A stretch of DNA of 64,000 bases from Candidatus Parcubacteria bacterium (GCA_002869165.1 PKTK01000001.1:157006-221005); one strand, 5' to 3'. Counted from the stretch's first letter, positions 2,507 to 61,656 are shown. The notes: a model not told the origin generated them from the sequence alone. A program made the numbers and translations.

Positions 2507-3094
2507 ATGATTTTAGATGAAGGAAAAATTGAAAAAATAAGCGATGAAGAGCTGGTTTCTAAAGTTTTGGAAAACGAGGATTATTTTTTGTATCTAATGA
2601 GAAGGTATGAAACGAAATTATTGGCCTATATTTTACGTATATCAAGTAATAACAGTGAAGAAGCCGAGGATATTTTGCAAGATGTTTTTATTAAGGTGTA
2701 CAAAAATTTAAATAATTTTGATACAAATCTTAAATTTTCATCTTGGATTTATCGTATAACTCATAATGAAGTAATAAGTAAATACAGAAAAAATAAAAAA
2801 ATATTGCAATTTTCTGATCAAGAATTAAAAGACGAGATTTTCAATAGAATTGTTGATGATTTTGATGTAAAAGAAAAAGTAGACAATGATATACTTCGTA
2901 ATAAGTTACTTAAAAATATTGATTTGCTAGATGAAAAATATAGGAACGTTTTGGTATTAAAGTATTTTGAAGATAAAGAGTATGCAGAGATATCTTATAT
3001 TTTAGAAAAACCAGTTGGTTCTGTTGCTACTCTTTTGTATAGAGCAAAAAAGGAGTTAGCAAATTTGCTGCATCAAGATGATTTTAAAAAATAA
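2507..3094 (+). CDS. RNA polymerase sigma-70 factor, ECF subfamily
   Basis: Region 2 (DILQDVFIKVY, WIYRITHNEVISKYRK) and region 4 HTH (EYAEISYILEKPVGSVATLLYRAKKEL); start abuts the upstream stop (TAAATG). Confidence 0.85.
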   Translation: MILDEGKIEKISDEELVSKVLENEDYFLYLMRRYETKLLAYILRISSNNSEEAEDILQDVFIKVYKNLNNFDTNLKFSSWIYRITHNEVISKYRKNKKILQFSDQELKDEIFNRIVDDFDVKEKVDNDILRNKLLKNIDLLDEKYRNVLVLKYFEDKEYAEISYILEKPVGSVATLLYRAKKELANLLHQDDFKK

Positions 3095-4094
3095 TATGAC
3101 AAAAATTGATATAAGCAAAAAAGCTTTAGAAAAAATAAAATCAAGTCGTATCAAGCCTCGCGCTAAGTGGAAGTTTTTACTTACTGAAAATTTGTTTATA
3201 CTTCTTGAAATAGTGCTTGTTTTATTTACTGCTTTGTTTTTTGCTGTTACTATTAATCAACTCATTTATAGTGATTGGGATTTTTATGGCTATATAAATG
3301 GAAATTTATTTTATTATATTCTACAAGTTTTTCCATATTTTTGGTTTTTCTTTTTATTGTTGTTTTTTGTTTTAACATATTTGAATTTTAAAAATTTGAG
3401 AAGATCGTATAGATACAGCACTTACATAGTGCTTGGAACTTTTGTTTTTGTAGTGTTTAGTGCAGGCTATATTCTGTACACTATAGGCTATGCAAAAAAA
3501 ATTGATTTAACATTGATAGATAAATCAGAAATGTATTGTAATCATGTGAACAAGAGGCTAAACACCTGGAACCAGGCTGATAAGGGAATGATTGCTGGTA
3601 GGGTGATTGAGAATAAAGACAATTTTTTCATCATGCATGATCTTGAGGGGAATGTTTGGAATATTGTGTATGGCGATAGTTTATTGTTTGACAGGGAAGT
3701 TATAAACGAGGGAATGCCAATTCGGTTAGTGGGGGGCTTTGAAGAAAAGTTCAAAAATCTTGAACATAATATTTTAATAGCCAAAGAATTGATGCAGGAG
3801 GATTATCTGAATATAAAGTATTTTGATTTTGACAATCTAATTAATTCATTTTGTTTTTCTGATGATGACTGTAGTTTATCATTTGATTTTGCTATCCAGT
3901 CCAGGTGCCCATTCGATTCAGTTTGCATTAACCATACCTGTGAAACAGTTTGCCCGATTATGAATTTAAATAGCAGTGAAGGGTGTAGTGATGTTACAGA
4001 ATGTGATTGTGCTTCTTATTTGGCAACAGACAAAAAGGATTGTATTTGTGAGAATGAGAGGTGTTTGGTGGTGGTTGATGAAGTTAAGAATTAA
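3078..4094 (+). CDS. membrane protein with Cys-rich extracytoplasmic tail, candidate anti-sigma factor
   Basis: Overlaps the sigma gene by 17 nt; several hydrophobic segments; C-terminal CSLSFD..CPFDSVCINHTCETVCP..CDC..CICENERC. The anti-sigma call rests on position only. Confidence 0.55.
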   Translation: MILKNNMTKIDISKKALEKIKSSRIKPRAKWKFLLTENLFILLEIVLVLFTALFFAVTINQLIYSDWDFYGYINGNLFYYILQVFPYFWFFFLLLFFVLTYLNFKNLRRSYRYSTYIVLGTFVFVVFSAGYILYTIGYAKKIDLTLIDKSEMYCNHVNKRLNTWNQADKGMIAGRVIENKDNFFIMHDLEGNVWNIVYGDSLLFDREVINEGMPIRLVGGFEEKFKNLEHNILIAKELMQEDYLNIKYFDFDNLINSFCFSDDDCSLSFDFAIQSRCPFDSVCINHTCETVCPIMNLNSSEGCSDVTECDCASYLATDKKDCICENERCLVVVDEVKN

Positions 4095-4139
4095 GAATTA
4101 AGAATTAAGAATTAAGAATTAAGAATTAAGAATTAAGAA
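4084..4139. repeat. tandem heptamer array (TTAAGAA x 8)
   Basis: Eight perfect head-to-tail copies, starting inside the last codons and stop of CDS 3078..4094. Confidence 0.95.
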
Positions 4140-4243: not shown

Positions 4244-4276
4244 AGACCTCCGACGTCTCTGAGACGTCGGAGGTCT
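4244..4276. repeat. perfect 16+1+16 palindrome AGACCTCCGACGTCTC-T-GAGACGTCGGAGGTCT (REP-like)
   Basis: Read directly; related to the CAGACCTCCGAGGTCTG palindrome inside the RayT-like gene at 53771-53820. Confidence 0.9.
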
Positions 4277-4343
4277 TTCGTTCGTGTTATCCTTTTGTTG
4301 CTCTTGTCTGCTATATATTTATGTGAGGTGAAGACAAACAAAA

Positions 4344-4372
4344 AAAGACCTTTTTTAAGATGGTCTTTTTTT
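4344..4372. terminator. bidirectional rho-independent terminator between convergent genes
   Basis: Stem AAAGACC / GGTCTTT with an A-run upstream and a T-run downstream; lies between the + gene ending 4094 and porB ending 4383. Confidence 0.55.
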
Positions 4373-4382
4373 GTGGTAGGGC

Positions 4383-5306
4383 TTATTTTAATCCGTATTT
4401 TTTGATATTATCATTAGCGATTTGTTGAATGTATTTGATCTGCTCTTTAGCAAGTTTGTTGTTTTCCAGTAAATGCTTGAATCTGCCTTGGGCCTTTAGA
4501 TAGTTGTCAACTTTTGGTGTTTTGGTTGGTACTTTCATTACATTTGTTAATTCACCATTTTCGTATTCTAATAAGGGATAAAGGCCGGTTTGAGCAGCTA
4601 ATTTTCCGATTTGCAGAGTCTGGTCAGGCGGAAATTTCCAACCAGGTACACAAGGGACCATGATTTGAATATAACTTGGGCCTGGGGTTTCAATGGCTTT
4701 TTTAACCTTAGCTTTGATATCTTCTAGATAGCCTACAGTGGTTTGAGCAACATAATTTAGTCTATGTGCTAAAGCGATAGCTACAATATCTTTTTTTCTA
4801 AGGTGTGAACCAATTGCATCAATGGATTTACCACTTCCAGATGGAGTAGTAGTGGTTGATGATCCCCAGGGAGTGGCAGTGGATGCTTGCATACCAGTAT
4901 TGGCATAGGCTTCATTATCATAGCAAACGTAAGTAATATCTTCACCTCTTTCCCACATACCAGAAATTAACCCGAAGCCAATGTCAAATGTTCCACCATC
5001 ACCGCCTTGGGCTAGTACTCTGGTCTTTTTTCCTTTGACTCCCTTAGAGTCAAGAGCAGCACGTACTCCAGAAGCAACCGCTGCAGCGTTTTCAAATAGT
5101 GAGTGTATCCAAGGTACGCCCCATGAACTTTCAGGATATGGAGAAGTGGTTACCTCAAGACAGCCTGTACCATTGGCTATAACTGTATTTGGCCCCATAG
5201 CTTCGATCACGGTACGAGCAGCAATCAGCTGACCACAACCCGCACAAGCTCTATGACCTGAGGCAAGTAAATGTTTTTTTGATTTAGGTTTTGTAGTTGT
5301 TGGCAT
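4383..5306 (-). CDS. porB: 2-oxoacid (pyruvate):ferredoxin oxidoreductase beta subunit (TPP-binding)
   Basis: CAGCGQ N-terminal Cys motif; TPP motif GDGGTFDIGF...YDNEAYANTG. Confidence 0.9.
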   Translation of the reverse strand: MPTTTKPKSKKHLLASGHRACAGCGQLIAARTVIEAMGPNTVIANGTGCLEVTTSPYPESSWGVPWIHSLFENAAAVASGVRAALDSKGVKGKKTRVLAQGGDGGTFDIGFGLISGMWERGEDITYVCYDNEAYANTGMQASTATPWGSSTTTTPSGSGKSIDAIGSHLRKKDIVAIALAHRLNYVAQTTVGYLEDIKAKVKKAIETPGPSYIQIMVPCVPGWKFPPDQTLQIGKLAAQTGLYPLLEYENGELTNVMKVPTKTPKVDNYLKAQGRFKHLLENNKLAKEQIKYIQQIANDNIKKYGLK

Positions 5307-5322
5307 AATATCTTTAATTTAA

Positions 5323-5425
5323 AAATTTATAATTTATAATTTGTAAACAATAATTAAATTTTTAAAATTTAAGAAATTATTAATTAAAAATTGTTTAAAA
5401 ATTATAAATTAAAAATTATAAATTT
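5323..5425. repeat. long imperfect AT-rich inverted repeat (hairpin) between porB and the DUF2283-like gene
   Basis: AAATTTATAATTTATAATTTGTAAACAATAATTAA pairs with TTAATTAAAAATTGTTTAAAAATTATAAATTAAAAATTATAAATTT. Confidence 0.7.
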
Positions 5426-5633
5426 AACTGGCTGGTATTATTTTTTTAATATCTTTTATATCTTTAATTTTATCAAATTGTCCTTTGAAGCTAGAAGCAT
5501 CAAGTATTTCTATTAGAATCGGTACACCTGTTTTTGACATGTGAATTATAATATTACCTATTTCGCGCGCATAGGATATTTCCCCCTTAGCAAGTTCTAG
5601 ACATATAATATTGGCCTCTGGATCGTAAATCAT
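5424..5633 (-). CDS. DUF2283-like small protein (candidate antitoxin)
   Basis: MIYDPEANIICLELAKGE...GVPILIEILDASSF fits the DUF2283 pattern as I recall it. Confidence 0.55.
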   Translation of the reverse strand: MIYDPEANIICLELAKGEISYAREIGNIIIHMSKTGVPILIEILDASSFKGQFDKIKDIKDIKKIIPAS

Positions 5634-5642
5634 ATTATTTAA

Positions 5643-5757
5643 TAAGCACTAAATTCTAATATCTAAATTCTAAATAATATCAAAATTCAAAATACAAATG
5701 TTTGAAACTTTAGATATTTGTGTTTTGAATTTGTTTAGAGTTTAGAATTTAGTGCTT
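5643..5757. repeat. long imperfect inverted repeat (hairpin) between the two small genes
   Basis: AAGCACTAAATTCTAA...CAAAATTCAAAATACAAAT pairs with ATTTGTGTTTTGAATTTG...TTAGAATTTAGTGCTT. Confidence 0.75.
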
Positions 5758-5764
5758 AGAGTTT

Positions 5765-5980
5765 TTACTTTACTGGATAAAAAGTAACTACTTTTTTTAA
5801 ATTACCGTGTTTCTGGTACACCACTTTGATGTTATCTTTTTTAGCTGATAAGTATTTACCTTTTTTACTGATCTTGTCAGGCATATTCAAACAATCCTCA
5901 ATTTCCTCACGCCGAAAAAACACCTTGTATTTATTCAATAGTTCAAACTTTTCTTCTGCGTATTTTGTGTAGTGGATCAT
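5765..5980 (-). CDS. DUF4258-like small protein (candidate toxin)
   Basis: 71 aa ending ...KVVYQKHGNLKKVVTFYPVK; adjacent to the DUF2283-like gene, a pairing I recall as recurrent. Confidence 0.45.
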   Translation of the reverse strand: MIHYTKYAEEKFELLNKYKVFFRREEIEDCLNMPDKISKKGKYLSAKKDNIKVVYQKHGNLKKVVTFYPVK

Positions 5981-5981
5981 A

Positions 5982-6851
5982 TTAGTGTGTAGTGTCCATG
6001 CAAACTTTTTTTACTGGATCGCAATACATTTGACTTGGACAACTATCAGAATTTTTACATTTCCTGTCCGTTTCTGTTGGAGGATGAATATCGTAGTAAC
6101 CTAGTTCCTTGTCATCTCCTATTGCATTAACTTTTTCCAAATTTAAATCTTTAAATTTTACCAAATCGGGGTTAACGATCCAAAGTAAAGTATAGGAAAA
6201 CATAGCTAAGGCTAGACCAGTTAGTGCAGCAATTATCCAGTCTTTAGCACCAGAAATCCTGGAAGCATTCCCCATGGAAGTTATCCAAATCAGACCATTT
6301 ATCATGATTATTACTGTGGCTATGATACCAACTACTCCAATAGCATACTGATAAATTGATTTTATATACTTTGCTATTGAGCTCGTGTCAGCCTTGGGTA
6401 TAAAACTTGAACTTGTATTACCACCGCTTGAGTTATTTGCTTGATTAGCAAGTTCAGCTTTTTTTTTATCACAATCTTCTTTATTAAGGGCGAATACTGT
6501 ACCATTTATATTACAATAAGTATTAATCTGGTTGTTGTTATTTTGGTTGGATGAGTCGTTACTTTCATTACTAGTATCACTGGTAACATCTGCGCTATCA
6601 GGTAGAGATGAGCCGTTATCTTCATTAGATGTGTTGTCACTAGAATCATCACTAGAATCAGGGTCCCCAGTATCCCAAGTATAGCCAGCAGCTTCGCAAG
6701 TAAGTTGAGTCCAGTTTGTTTCTGGCCCCCTGGGTGTGCCGCAATAAGCTGCTAGGACAGGTAAAAAGGGGGTAAAAGTAATATAGATTAGCAAAGATAA
6801 AAATAATGCCAATTTGAAATGTGGTATCCTGTTTTTGTTTATAATTTTCAT
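5982..6851 (-). CDS. T4SS pilin-like (VirB2/TrbC class, CPR 'T4SS_pilin' type) membrane protein with S/D/N-rich N-terminal region and Cys-containing tail
   Basis: Signal anchor; core IYQYAIGVVGIIATVIIMINGLIWITSMGNASRISGAKDWIIAALTGLALAMFSYTLLWIVNP has two TM helices around a G-N-x-x-x-I-x-x-AK loop. Confidence 0.55.
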   Translation of the reverse strand: MKIINKNRIPHFKLALFLSLLIYITFTPFLPVLAAYCGTPRGPETNWTQLTCEAAGYTWDTGDPDSSDDSSDNTSNEDNGSSLPDSADVTSDTSNESNDSSNQNNNNQINTYCNINGTVFALNKEDCDKKKAELANQANNSSGGNTSSSFIPKADTSSIAKYIKSIYQYAIGVVGIIATVIIMINGLIWITSMGNASRISGAKDWIIAALTGLALAMFSYTLLWIVNPDLVKFKDLNLEKVNAIGDDKELGYYDIHPPTETDRKCKNSDSCPSQMYCDPVKKVCMDTTH

Positions 6852-6874
6852 AGTGATTGTATTGTGAATCTATT

Positions 6875-8077
6875 TTATTTGTTAATAAATTTCATCTTAT
6901 CACCTGGTTTTTTAATTTCTACTAATATTTTATCAATCATTTTCTTGGTTATATCTTTTCCGCCTAGACCCACTATGAATGACTGAACTTTGGCCAGGGT
7001 TTCATTCTTGGCAGTGGCTTTCATGTCTAGAGCTAGAGGTCCGTCAGTGGCGCCTAGGGAAACGGCCTTTTCAAGAACTGCTACGAATTTGGCCTTTTGG
7101 ATGATTTTCAAGACTTCTTTTTCAGGGAAAGGACGGAAAGTTTTGATTTTGAGTACTCCAACTGAGTTGATGTTGAGCTTGGCTTTGAGTCCAGCGTTGT
7201 TTTCTATTTCATCAACAGCATCTTTGACTGTACCGACTAGTGAGCCCATAGCTACCAAAACTGTTGTTGGGTTCTTTGGTCCATAATATTCTATCAGGGC
7301 ATTGTTAACCTGAGCTTTCTTTTCTGACTGTTTAATAACTTCAGGAATTGCTTGTTTTAGGTTTTCGTATTCTCGTTTTAGAACTTTTTGGGAATCAACT
7401 AAGGCATCATGCAATTCTTCACGAATTTCCATGTAGTATGCTGGGGCTGCAAAAGCACCAAAACTTGCAGGATTGTCAGTATCTAGGAAGGCGCCTTTGG
7501 CTGGTTTGTAGTCAGGTAGATAGTTTTTGACCTGATTTGTACTTGGTACAGAAACTCCTTCATAAGTATGAGTTAATACAAAGCCATCAACATTTACCAT
7601 TACTGGCAATCCAACTTGCTCAGAAACTTTGTAGGCTAGTAGATGTTGCTCAACAGCTTCTTGATGATTTTCAGCAAAAAGTATTATCCAGCCAGCGTCA
7701 CGGATAGACATTGCATCTTGATGATCATTCCAGATAGTAATAGGAGCTGATACACCACGATTAGCACAGGTAAGAACTACCGGTAGTCTCATACCAGCAA
7801 TATTGTATAAAACCTCAGTCATTAGTAGTATCCCTTGGGAGCTGGTAGCAGTGTAGACTCGAACACCAGTAGCTGATGAACCAGCCACGATTGAAGCAGC
7901 AGCAAATTCGCTTTCAGCTCTAACGTATGTATATTTAGCTTTGTCATCAGCTTTAAATTTGGCTAGATCCTCCACAATATGTGTTTGTGGAGTTATTGGA
8001 TATGCTGAAATCACAGCCGGATTGATATTTTTTATTGTCTGGGCAATAGCTTGTGAGCCCTCAAGTATTTGTCTCAT
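6875..8077 (-). CDS. porA: 2-oxoacid (pyruvate):ferredoxin oxidoreductase alpha subunit
   Basis: 400 aa; N-terminal G.QAIAQ...AYPITPQT motif; adjacent to the other por subunits. Confidence 0.9.
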   Translation of the reverse strand: MRQILEGSQAIAQTIKNINPAVISAYPITPQTHIVEDLAKFKADDKAKYTYVRAESEFAAASIVAGSSATGVRVYTATSSQGILLMTEVLYNIAGMRLPVVLTCANRGVSAPITIWNDHQDAMSIRDAGWIILFAENHQEAVEQHLLAYKVSEQVGLPVMVNVDGFVLTHTYEGVSVPSTNQVKNYLPDYKPAKGAFLDTDNPASFGAFAAPAYYMEIREELHDALVDSQKVLKREYENLKQAIPEVIKQSEKKAQVNNALIEYYGPKNPTTVLVAMGSLVGTVKDAVDEIENNAGLKAKLNINSVGVLKIKTFRPFPEKEVLKIIQKAKFVAVLEKAVSLGATDGPLALDMKATAKNETLAKVQSFIVGLGGKDITKKMIDKILVEIKKPGDKMKFINK

Positions 8078-8093
8078 ATTTTATTCATTTAAA

Positions 8094-8519
8094 CATATAA
8101 ACATGTAAGCATGTAAACATTTTTATTTGGTTATTATTTTAATGATTTAATTAATTTCCAGAGCATTGCTCCTATTTCATCAGACAATTTTGCAATTTCT
8201 TGATATTCTTTGTTTGAGAAATAATTTTCAATAAAAGTAAAATGTAATAAATACTTTGATTCTTTCAGTGATCCGTATGAAATTTTCCAAAAGTATTTTT
8301 TTGTTTTGCTTTGCTTTGCTCTCTTGCAAATCCTTCAATATAATTTAGTATCACAGATAGAGAGCTTCTTCTAAGTTGTGATGTACTTCCAAACTGTTCT
8401 TCTTTTGGAAATTTTTTTGTTATTTTATAAACATCATGGGCATATTTATCCATTTTTTCTTTTAGACTAATTTGAAAATCATTCATGTTTAAATGTTTAT
8501 ATGCTTACATGTTTATATG
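8094..8519. mobile_element. inverted-repeat-bounded four-helix-bundle gene cassette (IVS-like), copy 1
   Basis: CATATAAACATGTAAGCATGTAAACAT (8094-8120) matches the reverse complement of 8493-8519 at 26/27; fills the porD-porA spacer. Confidence 0.6.
8134..8486 (-). pseudogene. four-helix-bundle protein (23S rRNA IVS-protein family), frameshifted
   Basis: N-half MNDFQISLKEKMDKYAHDVYKITKKFPKEEQFGSTSQLRRSSLSVILNYIEGFAR is in one frame and C-half ..YFWKISYGSLKESKYLLHFTFIENYF...MLWKLIKSLK is in another. Adding one base to the T7 run at 8296-8302 restores the frame. Confidence 0.75.
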
Positions 8520-8520
8520 A

Positions 8521-8811
8521 TTACTTTTTCTCTAGCTTCATTTTAATAGCTTTTACTGGGCATTCGGTGGCGCAGACTCCACAACCTTTGCAGTAGTCGT
8601 AGTCGGTGACTGGTTTTTGGCTGGCTTTATTTTTTTGCATCACTATGCATGATTCAGGGCAGGCTTTGGCGCAGGTGCCACAACCAATGCATTTTTTATA
8701 ATCAGTTTCCGGGATATAAGTGCGCCATGAACCGGTTTTGTTATTTAATGTTGAAGCAGCTTTGCTTGTTATGTCCATATTTGTATATTGATAAATAATT
8801 ATTTTTGTCAT
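8521..8811 (-). CDS. porD: 2-oxoacid:ferredoxin oxidoreductase delta subunit (2x[4Fe-4S] ferredoxin)
   Basis: CIGCGTCAKACP and CKGCGVCATECP motifs. Confidence 0.9.
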   Translation of the reverse strand: MTKIIIYQYTNMDITSKAASTLNNKTGSWRTYIPETDYKKCIGCGTCAKACPESCIVMQKNKASQKPVTDYDYCKGCGVCATECPVKAIKMKLEKK

Positions 8812-8933
8812 CTCCCTGCCTGCCGGCAGGCAGGGTAGCAGAGCAGAGCAGAGAGATTCCTTAAACGTGGTATTAGTTTAAACTGAGATATTCCCAAGAC
8901 CAAGGGATTCCTCACCTCCGGTTCGGAATGGCA
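8806..8933. repeat. composite GC-rich repeat block (TGTCATCTC...CCTTAAACG unit, 20-bp palindrome, inverted TGCCATTCCGAAC...GGAATCCC unit)
   Basis: Shares ends with the copy at 39725-39759 and the palindrome CCTGCCTGCCGGCAGGCAGG (8815-8834) with 18211-18230; overlaps the porD start codon. Confidence 0.7.
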
Positions 8934-8938
8934 AGACT

Positions 8939-9481
8939 TTATGAATTAAATGCCTTAGTAACAGCTTTGATATTTTTTTCAACCAAAGACTTATCTTTTC
9001 CAGCGAACTTTTGTTTGATGGCTTTGGTGAGCCCCTCTAGACTTATAAGATTGTTTATTTTGGCTAAGGTGCCAAGGATGACTGTGTTAACAATATTCTT
9101 TCCTAAAATATCAAGAGCGATATTTGTGGCATCAATTACATAAATATTTTCCAGATCAAAGTTTATTCCCAGTTGGTCCTTAGGAAGACTTGAATTAACT
9201 ATAAGAATCGTGTCTTTGTGACAACCTTGAGCAAGGTCAACAGTTCCGATCAGGGTAGGGTCTTGTACGATTAGCGCATCAGGCTTGTAGACGTGTTCTC
9301 TGGTTCTGATAGGTTTGTCATCAATTCGAGCGTAAGCTTGTATGGGCGCACCAGTTCGCTCAACTCCAAAATGAGGAAAGGCTTGGGATTCGTGACCATC
9401 ATTAAAAGCGGCAATTGCGATGAGTTCAGCTGCAGTCACTACACCCTGACCACCACGACCGTGAATTCTAATTTGATACAT
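8939..9481 (-). CDS. porG: 2-oxoacid:ferredoxin oxidoreductase gamma subunit
   Basis: MYQIRIHGRGGQGVVTAAELIA N-terminus typical of gamma subunits. Confidence 0.9.
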   Translation of the reverse strand: MYQIRIHGRGGQGVVTAAELIAIAAFNDGHESQAFPHFGVERTGAPIQAYARIDDKPIRTREHVYKPDALIVQDPTLIGTVDLAQGCHKDTILIVNSSLPKDQLGINFDLENIYVIDATNIALDILGKNIVNTVILGTLAKINNLISLEGLTKAIKQKFAGKDKSLVEKNIKAVTKAFNS

Positions 9482-9490
9482 ATTATTTAC

Positions 9491-9603
9491 AGGCTACGAA
9501 AATACGAATCTCCACTATTTGGCGGAACGAATTTACAAATCAGCTTATAACGAACACATTAAAATTATTCGTAAATTCGTACTGATTCGTATTTTCGTAG
9601 CCT
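9491..9603. repeat. hairpin repeat, GGCTACGAAAATACGAATC family, copy 1
   Basis: AGGCTACGAAAATACGAATC (9491-9510) is a perfect reverse complement of 9584-9603; inner arms ACGAATTTAC / GTAAATTCGT. Confidence 0.85.
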
Positions 9604-9646: not shown

Positions 9647-10336
9647 TTATTTTAAATGATTAATTATAGTGTCAAAATCTTCATCAGAGATAGTTCCTTT
9701 GATGACTTGGCCATTAATAAACCAAATAGGCGTGCCTAAGTTGTGAACACCAAGTTTTTGAGCATCATCAAAATCTTGTTGGATTTTGGGGATATATTTT
9801 TTTGAATCAAAACATGATCCAAATTTTTCCATATCAACTCCGACTTGTTTAGCAAGAGTATATATTTCTTGTTTCTCCTTGACTCCTTGTTTTATAAAGA
9901 GTTTGTCATGCATTTGCCAAAATAACTCCTGCTCACCAGCACATCTTGCTGCCAGGGCCAGATCAAGTGAATAATCATGTACAATCGGTAGATCTCTCCA
10001 GATGTATTTTACCTTGTCATTATATAATGTACTTATCTCTCTGATCTTTTGAAATGAAGCTTTGCAGTAAGGACAGGAAAAATCAGCAAATTCAACTATT
10101 ACAATCTGAGCATCATCGGCACCTATAGAGTGATTACTACCATCTCCTAAAATTAACTTTTCCGCATCCAAAATGTTTTCTTCAAGTCCTGGACTTAACA
10201 GGGTTTTTTCCAGTTTACTTGATTCTAAAAATGTATTCAGTACCAACGAAGCTAGAAATATCAGAAATATTATAAAAAAAGCTTTGGAAAAAAATTTAAA
10301 AAAGGCCAATAATGATTGTTTGGAATTATTTGTCAT
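9647..10336 (-). CDS. membrane-anchored DsbA-family thiol:disulfide oxidoreductase
   Basis: N-terminal TM segment; thioredoxin-fold active site FSCPYCKAS. Confidence 0.8.
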   Translation of the reverse strand: MTNNSKQSLLAFFKFFSKAFFIIFLIFLASLVLNTFLESSKLEKTLLSPGLEENILDAEKLILGDGSNHSIGADDAQIVIVEFADFSCPYCKASFQKIREISTLYNDKVKYIWRDLPIVHDYSLDLALAARCAGEQELFWQMHDKLFIKQGVKEKQEIYTLAKQVGVDMEKFGSCFDSKKYIPKIQQDFDDAQKLGVHNLGTPIWFINGQVIKGTISDEDFDTIINHLK

Positions 10337-10407: not shown

Positions 10408-10545
10408 ATGAATAGGCCAAATTTTGACAATCTAGAAAAAGATGTTTTGAAAAAAAGCCAAAAAAGGGATAAAAAAGGAAAAAAAACAATGAAGGTAAGT
10501 GGTGTTAAAGTAAAGAATTTGCAAAGAATTATTAAGGAAAAATAA
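10408..10545 (+). CDS. possible small basic protein (45 aa)
   Basis: ATG..TAA ORF MNRPNFDNLEKDVLKKSQKRDKKGKKTMKVSGVKVKNLQRIIKEK, read by hand; below the ORF-track cut-off; no homology recognised. Confidence 0.2.
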   Translation: MNRPNFDNLEKDVLKKSQKRDKKGKKTMKVSGVKVKNLQRIIKEK

Positions 10546-10547
10546 AC

Positions 10548-10595
10548 TGTTAAATGGTTAAATTGTTAAGTTATTAGCAATTTAGCCATTTAACA
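10548..10595. repeat. gene-less hairpin of the GTTAAA.GTTAAATTGTT arm family
   Basis: TGTTAAATGGTTAAATTG (10548-10565) matches the reverse complement of 10578-10595 at 17/18; same arm family as cassette 3 (41626/42033). Confidence 0.8.
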
Positions 10596-10609
10596 ATTTA
10601 TTATTTTAT

Positions 10610-12370: not shown

Positions 12371-12815
12371 AATTAAAAATTAAGAATTAAAAATTAAAAG
12401 TATTGCATGGAAGATAATGTTATCAAGAAAAAGTCTTTTGATTTTTCTGTTAGAATAGTAAAGGGGTATAAATATTTAACTACTAAAAAACGAGAGTTTG
12501 TTTTGTCAAAACAGTTATTACGAAGTGGTACCTCAATAGGAGCAAATATCGAAGAAGCAATAGGCGGTCAATCAAGAAAAGATTTTATTTCGAAATTTTC
12601 AATAGCATATAAAGAAGCCAGAGAGAGTAAATATTGGATAAGACTTTTAAGGGAAGTAAATTATTTAACTGAAGAGCAGGCAGAATCATTGCTTGATGAT
12701 TGTGATGAAATATGTAAAATAATTTCAAGCATATTAATAAGCAGTAAAAACAAAGATAATTGAAATTTTAAGAACTGAGAATTAATTCTTAATTTTTAAT
12801 TCTTAATTTTTAATT
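12371..12815. mobile_element. inverted-repeat-bounded four-helix-bundle gene cassette (IVS-like), copy 2
   Basis: AATTAAAAATTAAGAATTAAAAATTAA (12371-12397) matches the reverse complement of 12789-12815 at 27/27. Confidence 0.65.
12407..12763 (+). CDS. four-helix-bundle protein (23S rRNA intervening-sequence protein family)
   Basis: KSFDFSVRIVKGYKYL...LSKQLLRSGTSIGANIEEA.G.QSRKDFISKFSIAYKEARESKYWIRLL is the typical family pattern. Confidence 0.85.
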   Translation: MEDNVIKKKSFDFSVRIVKGYKYLTTKKREFVLSKQLLRSGTSIGANIEEAIGGQSRKDFISKFSIAYKEARESKYWIRLLREVNYLTEEQAESLLDDCDEICKIISSILISSKNKDN

Positions 12816-16780: not shown

Positions 16781-16930
16781 GAAGAAGAGATTAAAAAGCT
16801 TGCTTTAGAGTCTGAGAAGGTTGAGAAATGGACTGCTGGCAAGGAGATTAAGAAAGTTATATATGTGAAGGGGAAGTTGGTAAGCGTGGTTGTGTAGTTT
16901 TATAAAATGTATAGACTACAAAAATACTTG

Positions 16931-17028
16931 GGCTACGAAAATACGAATCTATACGAATTTACGAATAATTTTGATATGTTCGTGATGAACAGATTCGTAA
17001 ATTCGTACTTATTCGTATTTTTGTAGCC
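16931..17028. repeat. hairpin repeat, GGCTACGAAAATACGAATC family, copy 2
   Basis: 36-nt arms GGCTACGAAAATACGAATCTATACGAATTTACGAAT and the reverse complement of 16993-17028, about 32/36 matches. Confidence 0.85.
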
Positions 17029-17037
17029 TAAAGATGT

Positions 17038-18116: not shown

Positions 18117-18256
18117 TGTTATTCCCGGCTGGAGCTACTTAATCCTTAGGCATAAACTCCGAGTAGGGGAAGGGGATCTTGTCAGTTCTAATCTTTGCGA
18201 GATTCCCTTCCCTGTCTGCCGGCAGGCAGGCCTCCCTTCGGTCGCCGGGAATGACA
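18117..18256. repeat. composite hairpin built from two inverted TGTCATTCCCGGC... elements plus a 20-bp palindrome
   Basis: TGTTATTCCCGGCTGGAG (18117-) and GCCGGGAATGACA (-18256) are inverted; GGGGAAGGGGATCT / AGATTCCCTTCCC inner arms; CCTGTCTGCCGGCAGGCAGG at 18211-18230. Confidence 0.8.
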
Positions 18257-18260
18257 GAAG

Positions 18261-18307
18261 GTGTTATGTGATACATGTTGTATGATATGTGAAAAACGTG
18301 TTATAAT
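18261..18307 (+). promoter_or_regulatory. promoter module GTGTTATGTG-N11-ATGATATGTG-N6-GTGTTATAAT
   Basis: -10 TATAAT at 18302-18307, 33 nt upstream of ATG 18340, with AGAGGA SD between; same architecture at 21404-21451 on the minus strand. Confidence 0.5.
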
Positions 18308-28595: not shown

Positions 28596-31500
28596 ATGAT
28601 TTTTAAAAAGTTTACAATTAAATTTTTAATAGTAAGTGTTTTATTATTTAGTTTTGTTTTTGCTGGTAGTTCACGGGCTGTAGGAATGGAAGTTATGGTT
28701 GGCGATAAGACTCATATAGGTACCACCATCGCACAGATGGGGAAAGATGTGGCAAATTGGGCTAAAGACTATTCCTATCAGCTGTATGAATGGACAAGAG
28801 ATGAAGGTATAGCCCTGGCTTACAAGAAGGCAGTGGGTTATTTTTTAAAGCAGTTAGCTTATGATGCGGCTACATACTTAGCAACCGGTGACAAGGGACA
28901 GGATTCTATGTTTTACACTGAGAATTGGGGGGATTATTTAAGCAATGTAGGAGATAATGCAGTTGGTCATTTTTTGGAAGAACTCGGTCAAAGTGGAACC
29001 GCCAAGTTTAATCTTTGTAATCCAGGAATTGATATTACAGCTAAGATCGGTTTAGGTATCGCTGAAACAAAGAATCCTGACGAACCTGACTGTACATTTA
29101 CTGAAATGAAAAATAATTGGGAATCAGAACTAGAAAGAGATGATTTTTTGCAACGTTTTGGTAGTATGTTTGAACCTGAATCAAATGACTTTGGTATAGC
29201 TCTTTCCCTTCATATGGAAGCAATGGAAGTAGAAATAGCTGAAAAGGAGGCAGCTACTTTAACCAGAGATGTAAATGATGGATTTAAAGATGTGACAGAA
29301 GGTATTAGTGGAGCTATCAAGACTCCTGGGGCGGTTATTAGAGATTATACAAATGATGTGATTGAAAAATCGGGTGAGAATTATTTTACATACACTGGTC
29401 ATATTTTGGCTGACGCGATTGATGTTTTTACCACCACACTTACAGGCAAGCTACTTGAGGAGTGGTTGCGAAAGGGATTGGCTAGATCAAGCGAAGACAC
29501 CAGCTATACTGGTGATTGGGGGGATTTTAGTTCAAGTGGAGGTTCATATTCAGGCGGTAGTTTAAGCTCTCGTGGCAGCTCAGGTTCTAGTGGTGGTTCT
29601 GGTTCTAGCTCGGGTGGTTCTGGTAGTTCTAAATCAAGCGGTTCTTCGAGTTACTCCAGCGGAGGTGGTTCATCAAACTATGAAAGTTCTGGGTCAAGTG
29701 GCTCTGGTATCACTCAGGCCAAAAAACAATTCGAATCATTAATTGAGCCAGATTTTGCTATAAGAGGAGACTATAATGCTATGAATGAACTAGTTGCATG
29801 TTCTGACCCGGTAAATGCTGGGCCAAATGAATGTGTGGTTACAAATAATTTCAGACAAGCCATAGAAAACAGAATGACAGTTGGTGAAGCCATGGAGGAT
29901 GAATATATTAGTAAATACGGAGTGTTTGGCTTCAAGGCTGATGGGCTTGAGCCAGCTTATAATGAAGGTGTTCCATATAGGTCTATGATGATTTTGAGAA
30001 AATACAGGATCGTACCAGTTGGGTGGGAGTTGGCAGCGCAATATATCATGGAAAATAGAGAAAATCTTCACAGGACTTTTAGTCTTTATGATATGATAGC
30101 TTGTTTTGATCCAGATGATAGATATGTTGGCTATGAAGGTGAGAATAACAATGCTTGGTGTGAAGGATTGGTGGATCCAAGCTGGGTACTTAAGTCACCG
30201 CAGAATTTTTGTAAACGAGAAGGGGCTGGTCCACATATTATAACAGCTCAAGTTTTTGGAGAAGGGAATGATTCTAAATATATGATTACTAGAAACGAAG
30301 ATTATTGCGCTGATGAACAGACATGTATCATGGAAAATGATGATGGTAGTTGTGATATGTATGGTTACTGTACTGAGGATAGACGAAAATATAATTTTGA
30401 AGGTGAATCATGTGATCCAAGGTATAATAGTTGTGAGACTTTTAGATCTAGTAATGGCAGTACTCTCGGGTTGTTACAAAATACTTTGGATTATGAAACT
30501 TGCGATTCTTCAAATGTAGGTTGCGAGATGTATGCTTATGCTACTTCATATGAAGATGGTTTAGGAGTGTATGATCTAGATACTGGTAAAGTAAATTGGG
30601 CTTCGACAACAGGTCGGATAAGACTTGATGAAGATGCCTCGGAGTGCGATGAGGAAAATGAAGGTTGTCATTCTTTTATTCGAACAAACCCAGGTCTAGG
30701 TGTAAATTTACTACCTAATTCAGATTTTGAAGACTATGATTATGAAAAAGGTGAATTTGCTTATTGGGGTAGCGATATTGGCACTCAGTATTATGATGAA
30801 AATCTAGGTGTTAATACAGTTTTACTGAACAATAATTTTGTTCATAGTGTTGTAATTGACGCGCTTGATTACATGACAGGAGCCAGTGACTATGACCTAG
30901 GGGGTAATATTTTTACCTTGTCTTTTTATATTAGAAATTGTAACGGTGAGGTCAGGTTAGGTGAGACAACCAAGACTATAAATGCCAGTTCAGGCCAAGA
31001 CTGGTCTTATGTGGCTTTGAGTAATACCTTTCCAGAAGGTAGTGGAAATGTGATTGAAATAGAATTTTTAAATACGGAAGGATGCTATATGGACGGCATT
31101 AAACTTGAAAGAAATAGTCCAGAAGCAGATGGCGTACCTACAGAATATGTTCGTTATGGTGAAGTAGGGACTATATTTGAAAGATTAATTCCAGACTATC
31201 TTTTTGCTAGTTGCTACATGGATAGTGATGAAAATGGCTTCTTGGAGATGAGATTGGATGCTCCTGATGTTTGTAGTGATTATGCCAGGTATTGCACAGC
31301 CAAAGAAGTGAATTGTGATATGTACACATCAGAAAGCGATAATTTCAGTGTTCCAGCTGTTGTGTCAGCTAGTGATTATTGTCCTTCAGAATGTGTTGGT
31401 TTTGATTTGTTCATGCAAACCGAAACTGATTTTGAAGAATCAGAAACAGAGCTTTTAATACCTGATACAGCGGATACTTGTAGCGCAGTAGAAGTAGGAT

Positions 31501-34500
31501 GTGATGAATTTACCAATCTAGACGAAACTTTTAGTGGTGAGCAAAGAGAATATTTCAAGAATTTGAGACAATGTGTTTCTCCTGAAACCACTACTTGCAA
31601 TCCTTTCTTTGTATGGGAGGGATCTGATGAAACCGGTTATCAGCTTCGTGTACACAATCTTGATACAGACGGTAGTGGTATTAGAAATGTTGACGCAACG
31701 GTCTCGGCTTGTAGTACAGATATTTTGGACGCTAATTATGACCCAGCTTGTCGAGAATTCTATGATGCCGATGGTCAAGTTTATTTCGAGATTTATTACA
31801 ATACTTTTTCTTGTACTGATGAGTGTTATCCTTATCGCAGGACTATCATGGACGACGATTCAGACCTTGAAGCTGCTAATTGTGCTTATGGCGGTGGAGC
31901 TATGCAGACAGTTGGTGGGATAGAGCATTGTGTTTATATGGCAGTACCATCAGAAGGAGAAACATGTAGTGCTGAAGCAGCTGGTTGTAGGGAATACAAT
32001 GGTAATAGTGGTGCTAATTCTAGAATTTTGTTTGAAACAAGCTTTGAAGATGGCACTGACATGAATTGGGAAGGCGGCGAAAACAGCACAGCTTCAGTTA
32101 TTGCAGGCGAGCATTCACTGGCAATTGATACGAGCGTCTATTTTGAACTAGGAGATACTTTGATTGAGAGTAGATCCTACGTATTACAATTTTTAGTTTT
32201 TACAAACGATGCAAATGCAATTACAGAAATAGCTATTGAAAACCCAAATACAAATGAAAAAACAAGCTTTTTACCTGAAGATGGTTTAGCTATTAGCGCA
32301 GGTGGATGGCAAAGTTTAGAGTTAAATATCGAGAAATTGGACCATGAAATTGATGTTGGGGTAGAAAGAATTGTTATAGAAACAAGTTCAAATGTATTTT
32401 TTGATAATATTAGATTGACTGAAATTGAGGATAGGTATTATTTAATTGAAAATACTTTGGCAGATAATTGCGAATACGTAAATGCTGATCCAAGTGGAGA
32501 GTTACTAGATGATCATGGCTTCTATGCTGGTTGTGATGCGTATAATGATAGAGATGGTGATGTTCATCATTTGCACGAATTCAGTAATCTGTGTTCAGAG
32601 GATGCTGTGGGTTGTGAATTAATGATTGACACTCACAACTATAGTAGCTGGAAAGCAGGAAATTGGTTTGCAAGTTCGACAGATTCTTTTACCGTAGCTA
32701 CAGATACTTATGCCTATGTTGTGTATGATGAATCAAAAGTATGTAATGAAGCAGACAAAGGATGTGAGAAAGTGGGTATGCGTTACGAATACGAGTATGA
32801 TGGTGAACCGTATTATCAGTATTTTGATAGTTATATTTTCAATAATCCAGATGATTATAACGAATCTTTGTGTGAAATAGAAGCAGTCCGTTGTGATGCT
32901 TGGGAATACAGAGATGGCATAAGTTATTTTAAAGATCCTAATGATATGCTCTGTGAATGGCGCATTGAGGATGATATGGGGGTTGGGGCCTGGAATTGGC
33001 TCAAAATAGAAGCTAAACGTTGTGATTTTAATGCTGACGGGATTATCGCTACTACGACCAATGAATTTGGTGAAGTGGTAACAGGTGAAAGCGAAAGGAT
33101 CCTTTGTTCTGAATCAAGCGATTGTGGGCTTATGAATGATAATTATTGCGATGATTCAAGTCCATGTGATGGGGGTGAATGTATAGATAATCAATGCTAT
33201 GTAGCCTGTGTTTTAGATGAAAATGATTATCCATGTAAACTTGATAATAACGAAAATTATCCACCAAAAACAATCGGTTATGGTGGACCTGGCTCAATGG
33301 TGGCTCAACCACTTGGTTATCTCGAAGGTAGTAGCTGGTCAGCACTTTGCCCAGCTGGACAAGGTGATTGTACAGAGTATATCGATCCTCAGTCAGTTTT
33401 CTCTTTTGATGTTGATGTGTTGAAGCCTTATACTTTATATATCAGTGAAGATAGTACTTGGCCTGAATCTGAAGTTAACACCTCTTGTGACGTTTATTAT
33501 GTTTTTGATAATGAAACCAATAGACTAGTTGATGAGTCGTTAGTTGATGAACCAACTTTGTTTTATTATTATGGCGAAGAAGAATGCACCTTTAATCCTG
33601 ATTCTTACGAGATAAGAAAAGCTGTGGTTGATTATCAATTGGAAAATACACTTGATAAAGAAACTTGTAATGGCATAGTTGATTTTGAAGAGGGTTGTGT
33701 GCTTTTAAATGAAAGAGTGGTAGAATCAGCAGATACATATAATAAATTAATTTTTGACTCAACAGCTGATTACACTTTGCCTGCCTCACCAGTTTTAGCT
33801 GAGCCAGGAGATACCAATCAACTTCTCAAAGTAACACCAGATAGGGTATGCAATACCTGGCTGTCTTGTCGAAGTTTTATTAAAGATGCTGAAGGTAATG
33901 ATGTTTGTTATGATGTTGGGCTTTGTGAAAGATTTGATGATAATGGAAATTGTTCGTATTTTTCTCCTAAAGAAGAAGGGGTGAACCAAGTCTATACTTC
34001 TTCAGGTGATTTGGATATCAGTAATTTAACTGGCTATTCACTGGTTGGTTACAGTCCTGATACTTCTGAATTCGCTCAGTATAAGGTTGGTGATATGGAG
34101 CAGGTAGGTCAGTTAGCAGAGGTGCCTAATGGTAGCTTTGAGTTATTTGATGATAGTTTGTATCCCCTAGGCTGGACTCCAGGTACAGCTAATAATAGCG
34201 GTAATGCTGACTGGGAAAGAGATATGTTTAAGGTTATAGGAAATCCAGTTACAGCCCAAAAGGAGGGAATTGACTATCCAATGGATGGAAAAGCATTTTT
34301 AAAGTTTGGAGCCAAAGATAGTGTAAGATCTGAACCAATTGATTTGGTGCCAGGCTCAGAATACATTATTACTTATTATATAAATACCAAAAACTTGGCA
34401 GCAGGACAGGCAGTTTTGGATATTAGTTCACTTGGTGGAGGAGTTTTTAATACTGAAAGATCAAGAAATTGGGAGATGAAATTTCATAGATTTACAGCCG

Positions 34501-41606: not shown

Positions 41607-41625
41607 ATTAGTAAATGACTACATT

Positions 41626-42033
41626 GTTAAAGTGTTAAATTGTTTATGGAAAGCAAGTTTTTGATGTTAGGAGATTTAAACTCTTATTGTATTTCTTTTG
41701 GATTGTCAAATTATGTTTGGGGTGTTGTGGTTAATTGGGATAATTTTAGCAAGATAACAGTAGGGAAGCAATTTGTTAGGTCTGTAGATTCGATTTCAGC
41801 AAATACTGCAGAAGGTTTTGGCCGTTACAATAAGAAAGATAAAATAAAATTTTATAGATATAGCTTTGGCTCAGTAAAAGAATCTTTAGATTGGAATCAA
41901 AAAGCATTTTCAAGAAATTTGATAAACAAACAAGCGCATAGCCATATATATCATGAGCTTGATAAAATGCCAAAAAGAGATAAATTCATTAATTAAATAT
42001 ACTAACCAAAAATTAACAATTTAACAGTTTAAC
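41626..42033. mobile_element. inverted-repeat-bounded four-helix-bundle gene cassette (IVS-like), copy 3
   Basis: GTTAAAGTGTTAAATTGTT (41626-41644) matches the reverse complement of 42015-42033 at 18/19. Confidence 0.6.
41646..41996 (+). CDS. four-helix-bundle protein (23S rRNA IVS-protein family)
   Basis: ATG at 41646 preferred over the track's TTG at 41640; GKQFVRSVDSISANTAEGFGRYNKKDKIKFYRYSFGSVKESLDW is the family pattern. Confidence 0.8.
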   Translation: MESKFLMLGDLNSYCISFGLSNYVWGVVVNWDNFSKITVGKQFVRSVDSISANTAEGFGRYNKKDKIKFYRYSFGSVKESLDWNQKAFSRNLINKQAHSHIYHELDKMPKRDKFIN

Positions 42034-42045
42034 TATTTATATAAA

Positions 42046-42522
42046 ATGCAACAATTTACCGTACCACAATTTATTGATGTCGAAGATAAGGTGATTGGCT
42101 TTATTACTGTTAGGCAGTTTATTATACTTTTGGTAGCAGCCTTGATAATTGCTATTTTGTACAAATTGCTTTACTTTGAAACATTTATTATCAGCGCTGT
42201 TATAGTTGCTTTTATTGCTATTATTGTCGCATTTGCCAAAATAAATGGTGTTAATTTTCATATCTTTTTTACTAATTTCCTAATAACATTATTCAAACCC
42301 AATGTTAGAGTTTGGAATAATGCTTTTGGAAAAGATTATGTGAAAATTGTTGCTGAAAAGGTGGTGGAAGACTCAAAAGAACCAGAAGTGATAAAGACTT
42401 ATAGTTCTTCAAGACTTACTGAATTGTCTATGATTGTAGATACCCAGGGTGTTTTTAAGGGAACTGAGACACCTGAAGATCAGAATGTTGATTATAAAAA
42501 AACATTACATAGTAGAAATTAA
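42046..42522 (+). CDS. PrgI-family (VirB3-like) T4SS membrane protein
   Basis: MQQFTVPQFIDVEDKVIGFITVRQFIILLVAALI plus a second TM; immediately upstream of VirB4-type genes. Confidence 0.7.
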   Translation: MQQFTVPQFIDVEDKVIGFITVRQFIILLVAALIIAILYKLLYFETFIISAVIVAFIAIIVAFAKINGVNFHIFFTNFLITLFKPNVRVWNNAFGKDYVKIVAEKVVEDSKEPEVIKTYSSSRLTELSMIVDTQGVFKGTETPEDQNVDYKKTLHSRN

Positions 42523-53594: not shown

Positions 53595-54092
53595 ATGAAA
53601 TACGAAGGAGGGTATTATCATGTTTATAATCGAGGAGTTGACAAGAGAAAGGTTTTTAATACAGAAAAAGATTATAAGAGGTTTTTGCAATCGTTGATAG
53701 AGTTTAATACGGTAAATCCAATAGGTAGCATTAGAGAAGTTAATAGATATAAAGTCTTAGAAAATAGCACCGTTTCCAGACCTCCGAGGTCTGCAGATGC
53801 AGACCTCGGAGGTCTGGAAACTACGGTTTCTTTAGTTAAGATATATGCATATTGTTTATTGCCAAATCATTTTCATTTATTGGTCAAAGAAGAGCAAGAG
53901 AAAGGTGTTGGTAGGTTTATGAGTAAGGTTGGGAATGGTTATACAAAATATTTTAACATTATCAACAACCGCTCGGGTTTTTTATTTCAAGGCAAGTACA
54001 AAAAGAAATTGATTGACAATGAAAATTATCTTGCGTATTTAACTGCTTATATAAATTGTAATTCTGAGATTCACGAAATAAAAAAGGCATAA
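53595..54092 (+). CDS. IS200/RayT-like HUH (Y1) transposase family protein; the frame continues past the TAA at 54090 to 54272
   Basis: YHVYNRG, LLPNHFHLLV (HUH), YLAYLTAYINCN (catalytic Tyr region); the family-typical W.WSS..DYL follows the stop in frame. Confidence 0.7.
   Translation: MKYEGGYYHVYNRGVDKRKVFNTEKDYKRFLQSLIEFNTVNPIGSIREVNRYKVLENSTVSRPPRSADADLGGLETTVSLVKIYAYCLLPNHFHLLVKEEQEKGVGRFMSKVGNGYTKYFNIINNRSGFLFQGKYKKKLIDNENYLAYLTAYINCNSEIHEIKKA
53771..53820. repeat. 50-nt nested palindrome inside the RayT-like CDS
   Basis: GTTTCCAGACCTCCGAGGTCTGCA-GA-TGCAGACCTCGGAGGTCTGGAAAC, perfect 24-nt arms. Confidence 0.9.
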
Positions 54093-61583: not shown

Positions 61584-61656
61584 GTGTCATTCTGAGCAGA
61601 GTGGAGGATCTTGTAAATAACGGGATTTTTCACTCCGCTCAGAATGACACTTTTTT
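61584..61656 (+). terminator. hairpin made of two inverted GTGTCATTCTGAGC elements plus a T-run, probable parB terminator
   Basis: GTGTCATTCTGAGCAGAG (61584-61601) matches the reverse complement of 61633-61650 at 17/18; TTTTTT follows. Confidence 0.65.

Follow-up and report, generated by a model that had tools for sequence, protein, structure and literature searches.

In archaea, Thermotoga and Helicobacter, the four subunits of pyruvate:ferredoxin oxidoreductase (POR) are encoded in a canonical operon with the order porG/C-D-A-B. Hairpin repeats of a quite different kind, the Correia elements of Neisseria, occupy intergenic spacers as units of the miniature inverted-repeat transposable element (MITE) or repetitive extragenic palindrome (REP) type and are processed in mRNA. 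A further class of hairpin-bounded insertion, the intervening sequences (IVSs) of 23S rRNA genes, is found in Leptospira and Salmonella among other bacteria and encodes a four-helix-bundle protein known as S23p or intervening sequence protein (IVP); the origin, mobility and function of these IVSs and of their protein have been open since about 1990. Here we analysed a 64,000-nt stretch of DNA (the window; GCA_002869165.1, PKTK01000001.1:157006-221005) from a metagenome-assembled genome (MAG) named 'Candidatus Parcubacteria bacterium', whose locus tags begin with C0583_, and in which a four-subunit por cluster carries an IVP gene within a hairpin-forming cassette. We consider it likely that this cluster, shared by a Falkowbacteria-like clade, combines ancient resident genes with younger, selfish IVS-type hairpin cassettes that would be processed by RNase III.

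The 23S rRNA IVS of Coxiella burnetii is 428 nt long and is closed by terminal inverted repeats that form a 28-bp stem, which RNase III cuts in its middle; tandem heptamers lie just upstream of the S23p open reading frame (ORF), the ORF is in reductive evolution, and on the origin and mobility of the IVS the authors offer hypotheses only (PMC4990558). In bacteria of the candidate phyla radiation (CPR), IVP and GIY-YIG ORFs have been reported from rRNA insertions, which lie at the top or base of stem-loops (PMC11270868), and IVP genes located between cmr3 and cmr2 have been interpreted as cas-associated (PMC3936711). The cassette in the porD-porA spacer of the window shares with rRNA IVSs the ORF family (PF05635/TIGR02436), the size (434 nt, compared with 428 nt in Coxiella), the terminal inverted repeats that form a stem of about 30 bp around the ORF, an arm beside the start codon that contains tandem repeats of about 7 nt, an ORF prone to decay and a sporadic, selfish-looking distribution. 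It differs in lying between two protein-coding genes rather than in a helix of 23S or 16S rRNA, in belonging to a family that occupies many mRNA slots and has ORF-less derivatives, and in that excision by RNase III, which has been demonstrated for rRNA IVSs, is a matter of inference here. Since the cassette matches an IVS in ORF, size, stem and arms, but not in its rRNA location, we refer to it as an IVS-type element in an mRNA operon. The window holds no rRNA, a scan of its whole length against Rfam at gathering thresholds yielding tRNA-Leu only. A literature search that reached few subscription journals turned up no account of IVP cassettes enclosed by hairpins in mRNA operons; annotators may know the pattern informally.

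The preliminary description of this locus had placed a four-helix-bundle gene between porD and porA, and this gene indeed proved to be a member of the 23S_rRNA_IVP family (Table 1). The arms that flank it are 94% complementary, and in the minimum-energy fold their stem closes the entire 434-nt unit (z -5.5). The gene itself (8134-8486) has lost one A from a run of seven at about position 8296-8302; with one A added back, it encodes a 115-aa protein whose match to TIGR02436 spans positions 3-109 of 109 (93 bits), and the identical frameshift is present in an independent assembly of the locus. Two further cassettes lie elsewhere in the window, one of them, with an intact gene that we call IVPb, between genes for DUF2207 and Exo_endo_phos proteins, and the other upstream of a PrgI-family (type IV secretion) gene at 42046-42522. 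All three IVP genes in the window are thus enclosed by inverted repeats, and 5-13 nt separate their 3' arm from the start codon that follows. The four-helix-bundle fold family also includes Avd of the diversity-generating retroelements, to which the IVP of the por cassette shows weak bAvd/DivGenRetAVD matches (39 bits for the repaired protein); all of these scores, however, fall below the cut-off of 80 bits, and no reverse transcriptase, template repeat or variable repeat lies near the por cassette.

To see how such cassettes are distributed, we compared the window with 80 PorA-related loci (54-81% identity; one genome per species scanned), denoted by L numbers and annotated with the window proteins; the nearest relatives of the source MAG are Candidatus Falkowbacteria and other Patescibacteria MAGs. 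Across these loci the IVP gene is present in some genomes only and in six different slots, namely dsbA-porG, porD-porA, porA-pilin, o71-DUF2283, DUF2283-porB and porA-porB (gene names as in Table 1). Each slot is trimodal from genome to genome, being either tight (<40 nt), occupied by a gene-less hairpin (~80-250 nt) or occupied by a cassette (410-620 nt), in which a small gene lies between inverted repeats. An inverted repeat of at least 15 nt encloses 17 of the 18 IVP genes at related loci, as compared with 0-21% of other genes and 13 of 780 random 380-nt segments. The sequence of the arms varies from cassette to cassette, but a repeat period of 7-9 nt is seen within 66 of 82 arms, and a self-match of at least 0.75 in 31 of the 82, as against 0.9% of shuffles. 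The left arm contains or adjoins the IVP start codon, the right arm contains or adjoins the stop codon, and every cassette is co-oriented with its upstream gene. Three truncated IVP copies occur among the relatives, in addition to the frameshifted copy in the window. The IVPs of L023 and L043, which are 72% identical and have similar arms, reside in different slots (porA-pilin and DUF2283-porB, respectively).

The same units extend well beyond the por cluster and beyond Patescibacteria. Homologues of IVPb with 64-72% identity are found in Bacteroidetes and Acidobacteria. In Chitinophagaceae and Bacteroidia, IVPs 65-66% identical to IVPb lie between the adaptor and pump genes of resistance-nodulation-division (RND) efflux operons, where they are flanked by TTAAGAA/TTAAAAA units, the very units that build the arms of the IVPb cassette in the window. 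Further IVPs, with arms of the ACGAATT type, occupy a trp operon (between trpD and trpC), an ars-like operon and a restriction-modification operon, and in all of these operons (RND, trp, ars-like and restriction-modification) the IVP gene is co-oriented with the gene upstream. This linkage of arm and ORF across slots, genomes and phyla is evidence that the two move together. As a wider and more tentative reading, to which we give somewhat less than even weight, the IVSs that encode IVP/S23p might form a single pan-bacterial class of hairpin-bounded mobile elements, arms and ORF travelling as one, that settle in sense orientation in operon spacers (por, trp, RND efflux, ars, restriction-modification), pass between phyla, leave MITE-like hairpins behind on loss of the ORF and are excised by RNase III from mRNAs as from 23S rRNA. 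On such a reading the Avd-like protein might go on to work on the RNA so released, for instance in an RNA-mediated copying step. Finding the stem-plus-ORF unit between protein genes, at many slots and in several phyla, turns an rRNA curiosity into a tractable class of element, in which related sites with and without the gene can be compared and the cutting of operon mRNAs by RNase III can be put to the test. For annotators, it implies that genes for a 'four helix bundle protein' inside operons, including the cas-'associated' IVPs, are probable selfish insertions, not functional partners. Phages were considered as vectors for the spread between phyla and rejected, an IVPb-like protein being present in only 2 of 50,697 phage records.

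Several slots contain hairpins that lack a gene. The two long AT-rich hairpins reported earlier between porA and porB are real as judged by fold energy against shuffled sequences, and the slot between o71 and DUF2283, which holds one of them, is tight, hairpin-bearing or cassette-bearing in the relatives. A third gene-less hairpin, upstream of porG, has a counterpart at 16913-17030, which is 88% identical to it over 76 nt, loop included, and which immediately precedes the next gene, oriented relative to it as the porG hairpin is to porG; the ACGAAWWT units of both resemble the ACGAATT-type arms of the IVPs in the trp, ars-like and restriction-modification operons. Likewise, an ORF-less hairpin at 10538-10605 resembles the arms of the third window cassette. 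A direct connection between the two states came from local alignments of the gene-less hairpin in the porA-pilin slot of L048 with the cassette in the same slot of L023, which share 34 of 38 and 30 of 33 nt, covering the arms and both ORF termini. Because the L048 hairpin retains both ends of the IVP ORF, it is an internal-deletion derivative of a cassette; and because the PorA proteins of these two loci are only 65% identical, such near-identical non-coding arms are not the result of old vertical inheritance. At least some gene-less AT-rich hairpins would be MITE-like internal-deletion derivatives of cassettes, with one case shown. In this they are like the Correia-type elements, which they also resemble in their short length (about 70-170 nt) and bounding inverted repeats, in being dispersed between the genes of operons, in varying among related genomes and in being long enough to serve as RNase III substrates. 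They differ in having arms made of low-complexity tandem repeats of 7-9 nt that are specific to a subfamily, in place of a single conserved terminal repeat, and in deriving from a parent that encodes a four-helix-bundle protein, not a transposase; no transposase was found linked with the hairpins.

A mechanism that would account for these features can be proposed. The unit of about 430 nt has two arms of 20-40 nt, built from tandem repeats of 7-9 nt, that would pair into a long stem, with the Avd-like IVP/S23p ORF held in the loop and in sense with the upstream host gene. The por genes would be read as one polycistronic transcript that begins at a promoter upstream of dsbA, where the best sigma-70-like site on the por strand lies (10420-10392), and ends at the terminator-like hairpin after porB. 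As stems of 20-40 bp are RNase III substrates, they would be cut as in the rRNA IVSs, so that the IVP segment would be released and the mRNA split at each hairpin into pieces that would be separately stable. Each downstream cistron would keep its own leader of 5-13 nt, and the insertions may be tolerated because of this short leader.

A number of observations weigh against the reading of these cassettes as mobile, RNase III-processed elements. Co-transcription of the por genes and excision of their cassettes by RNase III are both inferred, and no RNase III gene was detected in the window by its signature motif, a result that is uninformative for the genome as a whole. We know of no catalytic function of the IVP protein that might explain mobility, and target-site duplications were not recognised when the flanks were inspected, a further difference from the Correia type. 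In two related-locus cassettes (L016 and L060) no inverted repeat was detected, and the IVP gene of L091 is flanked by direct, not inverted, repeats. A single deletion derivative has been documented; other gene-less hairpins could differ in origin, and one of them, the AT-only hairpin at 5314-5427 (-21 kcal/mol, z -3.7), beats AT-rich shuffles only weakly, 2 of 200 shuffles folding equally well. Finally, the excess of inverted repeats of at least 16 nt in por-locus spacers (69 of 326, versus 23 of 224 flank spacers; odds ratio 2.3, p=7e-4) depends on genes called crudely from ORFs; the enrichment is modest in any case, and the elements are not specific to por.

Among other explanations, the one that retains most ground, though we think it unlikely, is that the hairpins serve the host as processing sites, stabilisers or attenuators that set subunit stoichiometry, with IVP a domesticated RNA-binding factor. 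The stems stop 5-13 nt short of the following start codon, a position from which they could influence translation or the stability of the mRNA, no obvious Shine-Dalgarno sequences precede the por genes, and IVP is related to Avd, which binds nucleic acids. Such a role, however, sits poorly with the variation in presence, position and sequence at every slot, many genomes being tight there, with the decay of IVP copies, with the finding of the same arm-plus-ORF units in unrelated Bacteroidetes operons and with the lack of a match to any Rfam family.

The preliminary description itself had viewed the por operon as a landing pad, with all of the interposed genes (IVP, pilin-like, 71-aa and DUF2283) and the hairpins as independent and fairly recent insertions. 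For the small elements part of this view survives: IVP cassette, AT-rich hairpins and GC-rich block all occur sporadically, and por spacers have inverted repeats at about twice the flank rate; however, elements of this kind also sit in unrelated operons of the window and of other phyla, and are thus not peculiar to por. For the three genes between porA and porB it is refuted, by the very finding that the preliminary description had named as decisive against itself, an interspersed order shared by related genomes. The order dsbA-porG-porD-porA-pilin (one or two copies)-o71-DUF2283-porB recurs in essentially every sufficiently long locus (~30 genomes, 57-74% PorA identity), with a dsbA-like gene upstream of porG in 64 loci, a pilin-like gene after porA in ~56 and DUF2283 directly after o71 in 33; among the 80 loci, the pilin gene between porA and porB is absent only in L021, which has nothing there, L061 and L078, which has only an IVP cassette. 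Moreover, these genes diverge together with the por genes, median identity to the window being 56% for o71 and 60% for DUF2283, compared with 63% for PorA and 60% for PorD, and identity tracking that of PorA with Spearman coefficients of 0.58 (o71) and 0.72 (DUF2283). From conserved order and co-divergence it follows that pilin, o71 and DUF2283 belong to the cluster as fixed members and did not land there recently. At greater distance the arrangement is porA-pilin-porB, often followed by another pilin gene downstream of porB. On these comparative grounds we take the three genes to be ancient and vertically inherited, the pilin gene apparently having entered first and the o71-DUF2283 pair later; entry of this kind in deep time between porA and porB is still required, and to that extent favours the landing-pad view, which as a whole we hold to be rather improbable, a shade more so than a regulatory role.

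Less probable again is a hairpin-first history, in which repeat-built hairpins arise locally and IVP, GxxExxY and GIY-YIG genes enter their loops later, the arms being no part of a mobile unit. Gene-less hairpins do outnumber cassettes, rRNA insertion sequences are found at the top or base of stem-loops (PMC11270868), and por spacers contain three unrelated types of ORF in loops bounded by inverted repeats. Each type, however, has its own style of arm: the small GIY-YIG genes of L006 have GC-rich arms of the GTCATTYC type, and the arms of the GxxExxY/PD-(D/E)XK genes are of the GCTAATC/GCGAAT type in L023 but are shorter, of the form ATTCAAATGCTTCAAAT, in L019 and L030, the styles of L006 and L023 being distinct from the AT-only arms of IVP. 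Arm sequence also co-varies with IVP relatedness across slots, genomes and phyla, and the L048 loop, in keeping both termini of the IVP ORF, has the look of a deletion and not of an empty target. That palindromes, frameshift and interposed ORFs stem from misassembly of a metagenome, in which homopolymer frameshifts and palindromes can indeed be artefacts, is a notion we set aside, since L081, a separately made ENA assembly with 23x coverage, matches the window at 99.95% identity over 6.2 kb with zero gaps, the genes are spaced identically in L082, a third contig that comes from a different sample, and the same architecture recurs in dozens of unrelated MAGs.

Table 1. Features of the por region, of related cassettes in the window and of comparable units at other loci. 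Coordinates are those of the window unless a locus is named.
Feature	Locus	Coordinates	Strand	Details
IVS-like cassette, 434 nt	window	8090-8523	-	33-nt arms 8491-8523 / 8090-8122 around frameshifted IVP gene; porD-porA spacer
23S_rRNA_IVP four-helix-bundle ORF as read, 73 aa	window	8265-8486	-	PF05635 53.8 bits; TIGR02436
Second IVS-like cassette	window	12371-12815	+	intact IVP 12407-12763 (IVPb), PF05635 107.9 bits; 27-nt perfect inverted repeat
Third IVS-like cassette	window	41620-42039	+	IVP 41640-41996, PF05635 65 bits; 28-nt inverted repeat, 86% complementary
ORF-less AT-rich hairpin	window	5643-5758	-	o71-DUF2283 slot; -33.4 kcal/mol, z -7.9
ORF-less AT-only hairpin, TTTATAA-type units	window	5314-5427	-	DUF2283-porB slot; 44-nt arms, 84% complementary
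ORF-less hairpin, ACGAAWWT-unit arms	window	9491-9603	-	upstream of porG; 20-nt perfect inverted repeat; -54 kcal/mol, z -8.7
DsbA/thioredoxin-like gene (dsbA)	window	9647-10336	-	PF13462/PF01323; conserved first gene of cluster
porG (gamma)	window	8939-9481	-	PF01558 135.7 bits; NF006321 227 bits (cut-off 225)
GC-rich block	window	8812-8938	-	porG-porD spacer; palindrome CCCTGCCTGCCGGCAGGCAGGG at 8814-8835
porD (delta), 85 aa	window	8521-8778	-	two Fer4 (4Fe-4S) domains; TIGR02179 93.6 bits
porA (alpha)	window	6875-8077	-	POR_N 230 bits and PFOR_II 81 bits; best NCBIfam match PorA_Arch
Type IV secretion system (T4SS)-pilin-like membrane protein (pilin), 289 aa	window	5982-6851	-	PF18895 24.7 bits
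o71, 71 aa	window	5765-5980	-	RelE/YafQ/ParE-type predicted fold; without Pfam family
DUF2283 protein	window	5424-5633	-	PF10049 38.8 bits (cut-off 23); antitoxin-like partner of o71
porB (thiamine pyrophosphate-binding beta)	window	4383-5306	-	PF02775 (TPP_enzyme_C); best NCBIfam match PorB NF008819, 341.6 bits
Terminator-like hairpin	window	4338-4374	-	directly after porB; inverted repeat, stem then U run
IVP gene, non-CPR operon	L083/L085	2501-2857		64-70% identical to IVPb
IVP gene, non-CPR operon	L092	2001-2357		64-70% identical to IVPb
IVP gene, non-CPR operon	L090	2001-2360		64-70% identical to IVPb
IVP gene, non-CPR operon	L091	2001-2360		64-70% identical to IVPb
GIY-YIG or GxxExxY loops, ~400 nt	L006	6432-6979, 8198-8756		bounded by inverted repeats; por spacers
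GIY-YIG or GxxExxY loop, ~400 nt	L027	1368-1932		bounded by inverted repeats; por spacer
GIY-YIG or GxxExxY loop, ~400 nt	L019	5584-6049		bounded by inverted repeats; por spacer
GIY-YIG or GxxExxY loop, ~400 nt	L030	4634-5140		bounded by inverted repeats; por spacer
GIY-YIG or GxxExxY loop, ~400 nt	L023	4449-4921		bounded by inverted repeats; por spacer

The cluster in which the IVS-type cassettes are lodged has the four subunit families of the canonical por operon and keeps their gamma-delta-alpha-beta order, but differs in having three conserved, unrelated genes between alpha and beta, a dsbA-like gene as a conserved upstream neighbour and spacers colonised by hairpin elements. The gene order first proposed for the minus strand (porG, porD, IVP, porA, pilin-like gene, 71-aa gene, DUF2283, porB) is borne out by ORFs and domain matches, as is the 1568-nt distance from porA to porB, over which the three genes interrupt an otherwise preserved arrangement; this split is the conserved state of the clade. 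The best NCBIfam matches of the four proteins are PorC, PorD, PorA and PorB. Gamma clears its own equivalog cut-off, and delta and gamma both clear the pyruvate/2-ketoisovalerate subfamily cut-offs; alpha and beta score under the strict equivalog cut-offs. For these proteins Por models rank first and Vor models next, with pyruvate the putative substrate. A search for internal promoters upstream of porB had also been proposed, and a scan for sigma-70-like sites, which may not suit this organism, gave no prominent candidate there; nor were such sites enriched overall in that scan (22, compared with 25.3±5.5 in shuffles).

The residents between porA and porB are of interest in their own right, the presence of a pilin-like gene and a toxin-antitoxin-like pair inside a central-metabolism operon of Patescibacteria being a smaller, separate puzzle. 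The pilin-like protein of the window stays under the Pfam cut-off for PF18895 (24.7 bits, compared with 26.6), but 30 of 31 orthologues match this family at E<=1e-3 (best E 1.8e-10). Its C-terminal tail is conserved and rich in Cys (C265, C277), which, together with the constant dsbA neighbour, hints at a link between DsbA and the pilin apart from POR chemistry. The 71-aa protein o71 has 31 orthologues with a mean column identity of 71%. Its earlier designation as 'DUF4258-like' does not hold by Pfam, since PF14076 scores 14.8 bits against a cut-off of 25 and none of the 31 orthologues matches at E<=0.01; no Pfam domain was found in any of 44 database homologues. In an AlphaFold2 model (pLDDT 97), o71 gives YafQ, RelE, YoeB and ParE as its top Foldseek matches (probability ~1, TM 0.6-0.66), all with E >=7e-3. 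By this predicted fold, o71 and DUF2283 look like a toxin-antitoxin-type pair, comparable to the RelE/ParE type II pairs with DUF2283 (the DUF4258-DUF2283 type) in having a small protein of predicted RelE/YafQ/YoeB-like fold, a DUF2283 gene directly after it and the putative toxin gene first. They differ in the score of o71, which falls short of the DUF4258 cut-off, and in being fixed in, and co-diverging with, a metabolic operon, whereas the known pairs are usually sporadic and mobile.

The GC-rich block between porG and porD is of another kind. The preliminary description had it overlapping the porD start, but it overlaps only a spurious upstream ATG (8811); the conserved start is the ATG at 8778, which is the one called in L081 and whose context is kept in relatives. 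The porG-porD spacer is variable among relatives. A second copy of its palindrome CCCTGCCTGCCGGCAGGCAGGG lies at 18211-18230, where the chance expectation is 0, and exact copies of 20-22 nt occur in L050, L030, L021 and L046, with copies of 93-95% identity in L017 and, twice, in L058. Judged by these matches, the block belongs to a separate, dispersed REP-like palindrome family. Other GC-rich perfect or near-perfect palindromes, all of them intergenic, are found in the window at 4244-4276, 53772-53821, 61584-61650 and 18118-18265; examples in this AT-rich genome (window G+C 34.5%) include GACCTCCGACGTCTC/GAGACGTCGGAGGTC and motifs like TGTCATTCC...GGAATGACA.

Some minor observations concern the window and the comparison set at large. 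Eight tandem copies of TTAAGAA, the arm unit of the IVPb cassette, run into the stop codon of the ORF at 3078-4094 (array at 4084-4139); they have no inverted partner nearby, and the array may be a solitary arm. The window also contains a 2560-aa ORF (28596-36278). Many of the MAG records with a Patescibacteria-type por locus are titled 'uncultured Gammaproteobacteria bacterium' (binchicken; L002, L011, L015, L017, L021 and others), and one (L058) is titled 'Nanoarchaeia archaeon'; the taxonomic titles of these records are probably wrong.

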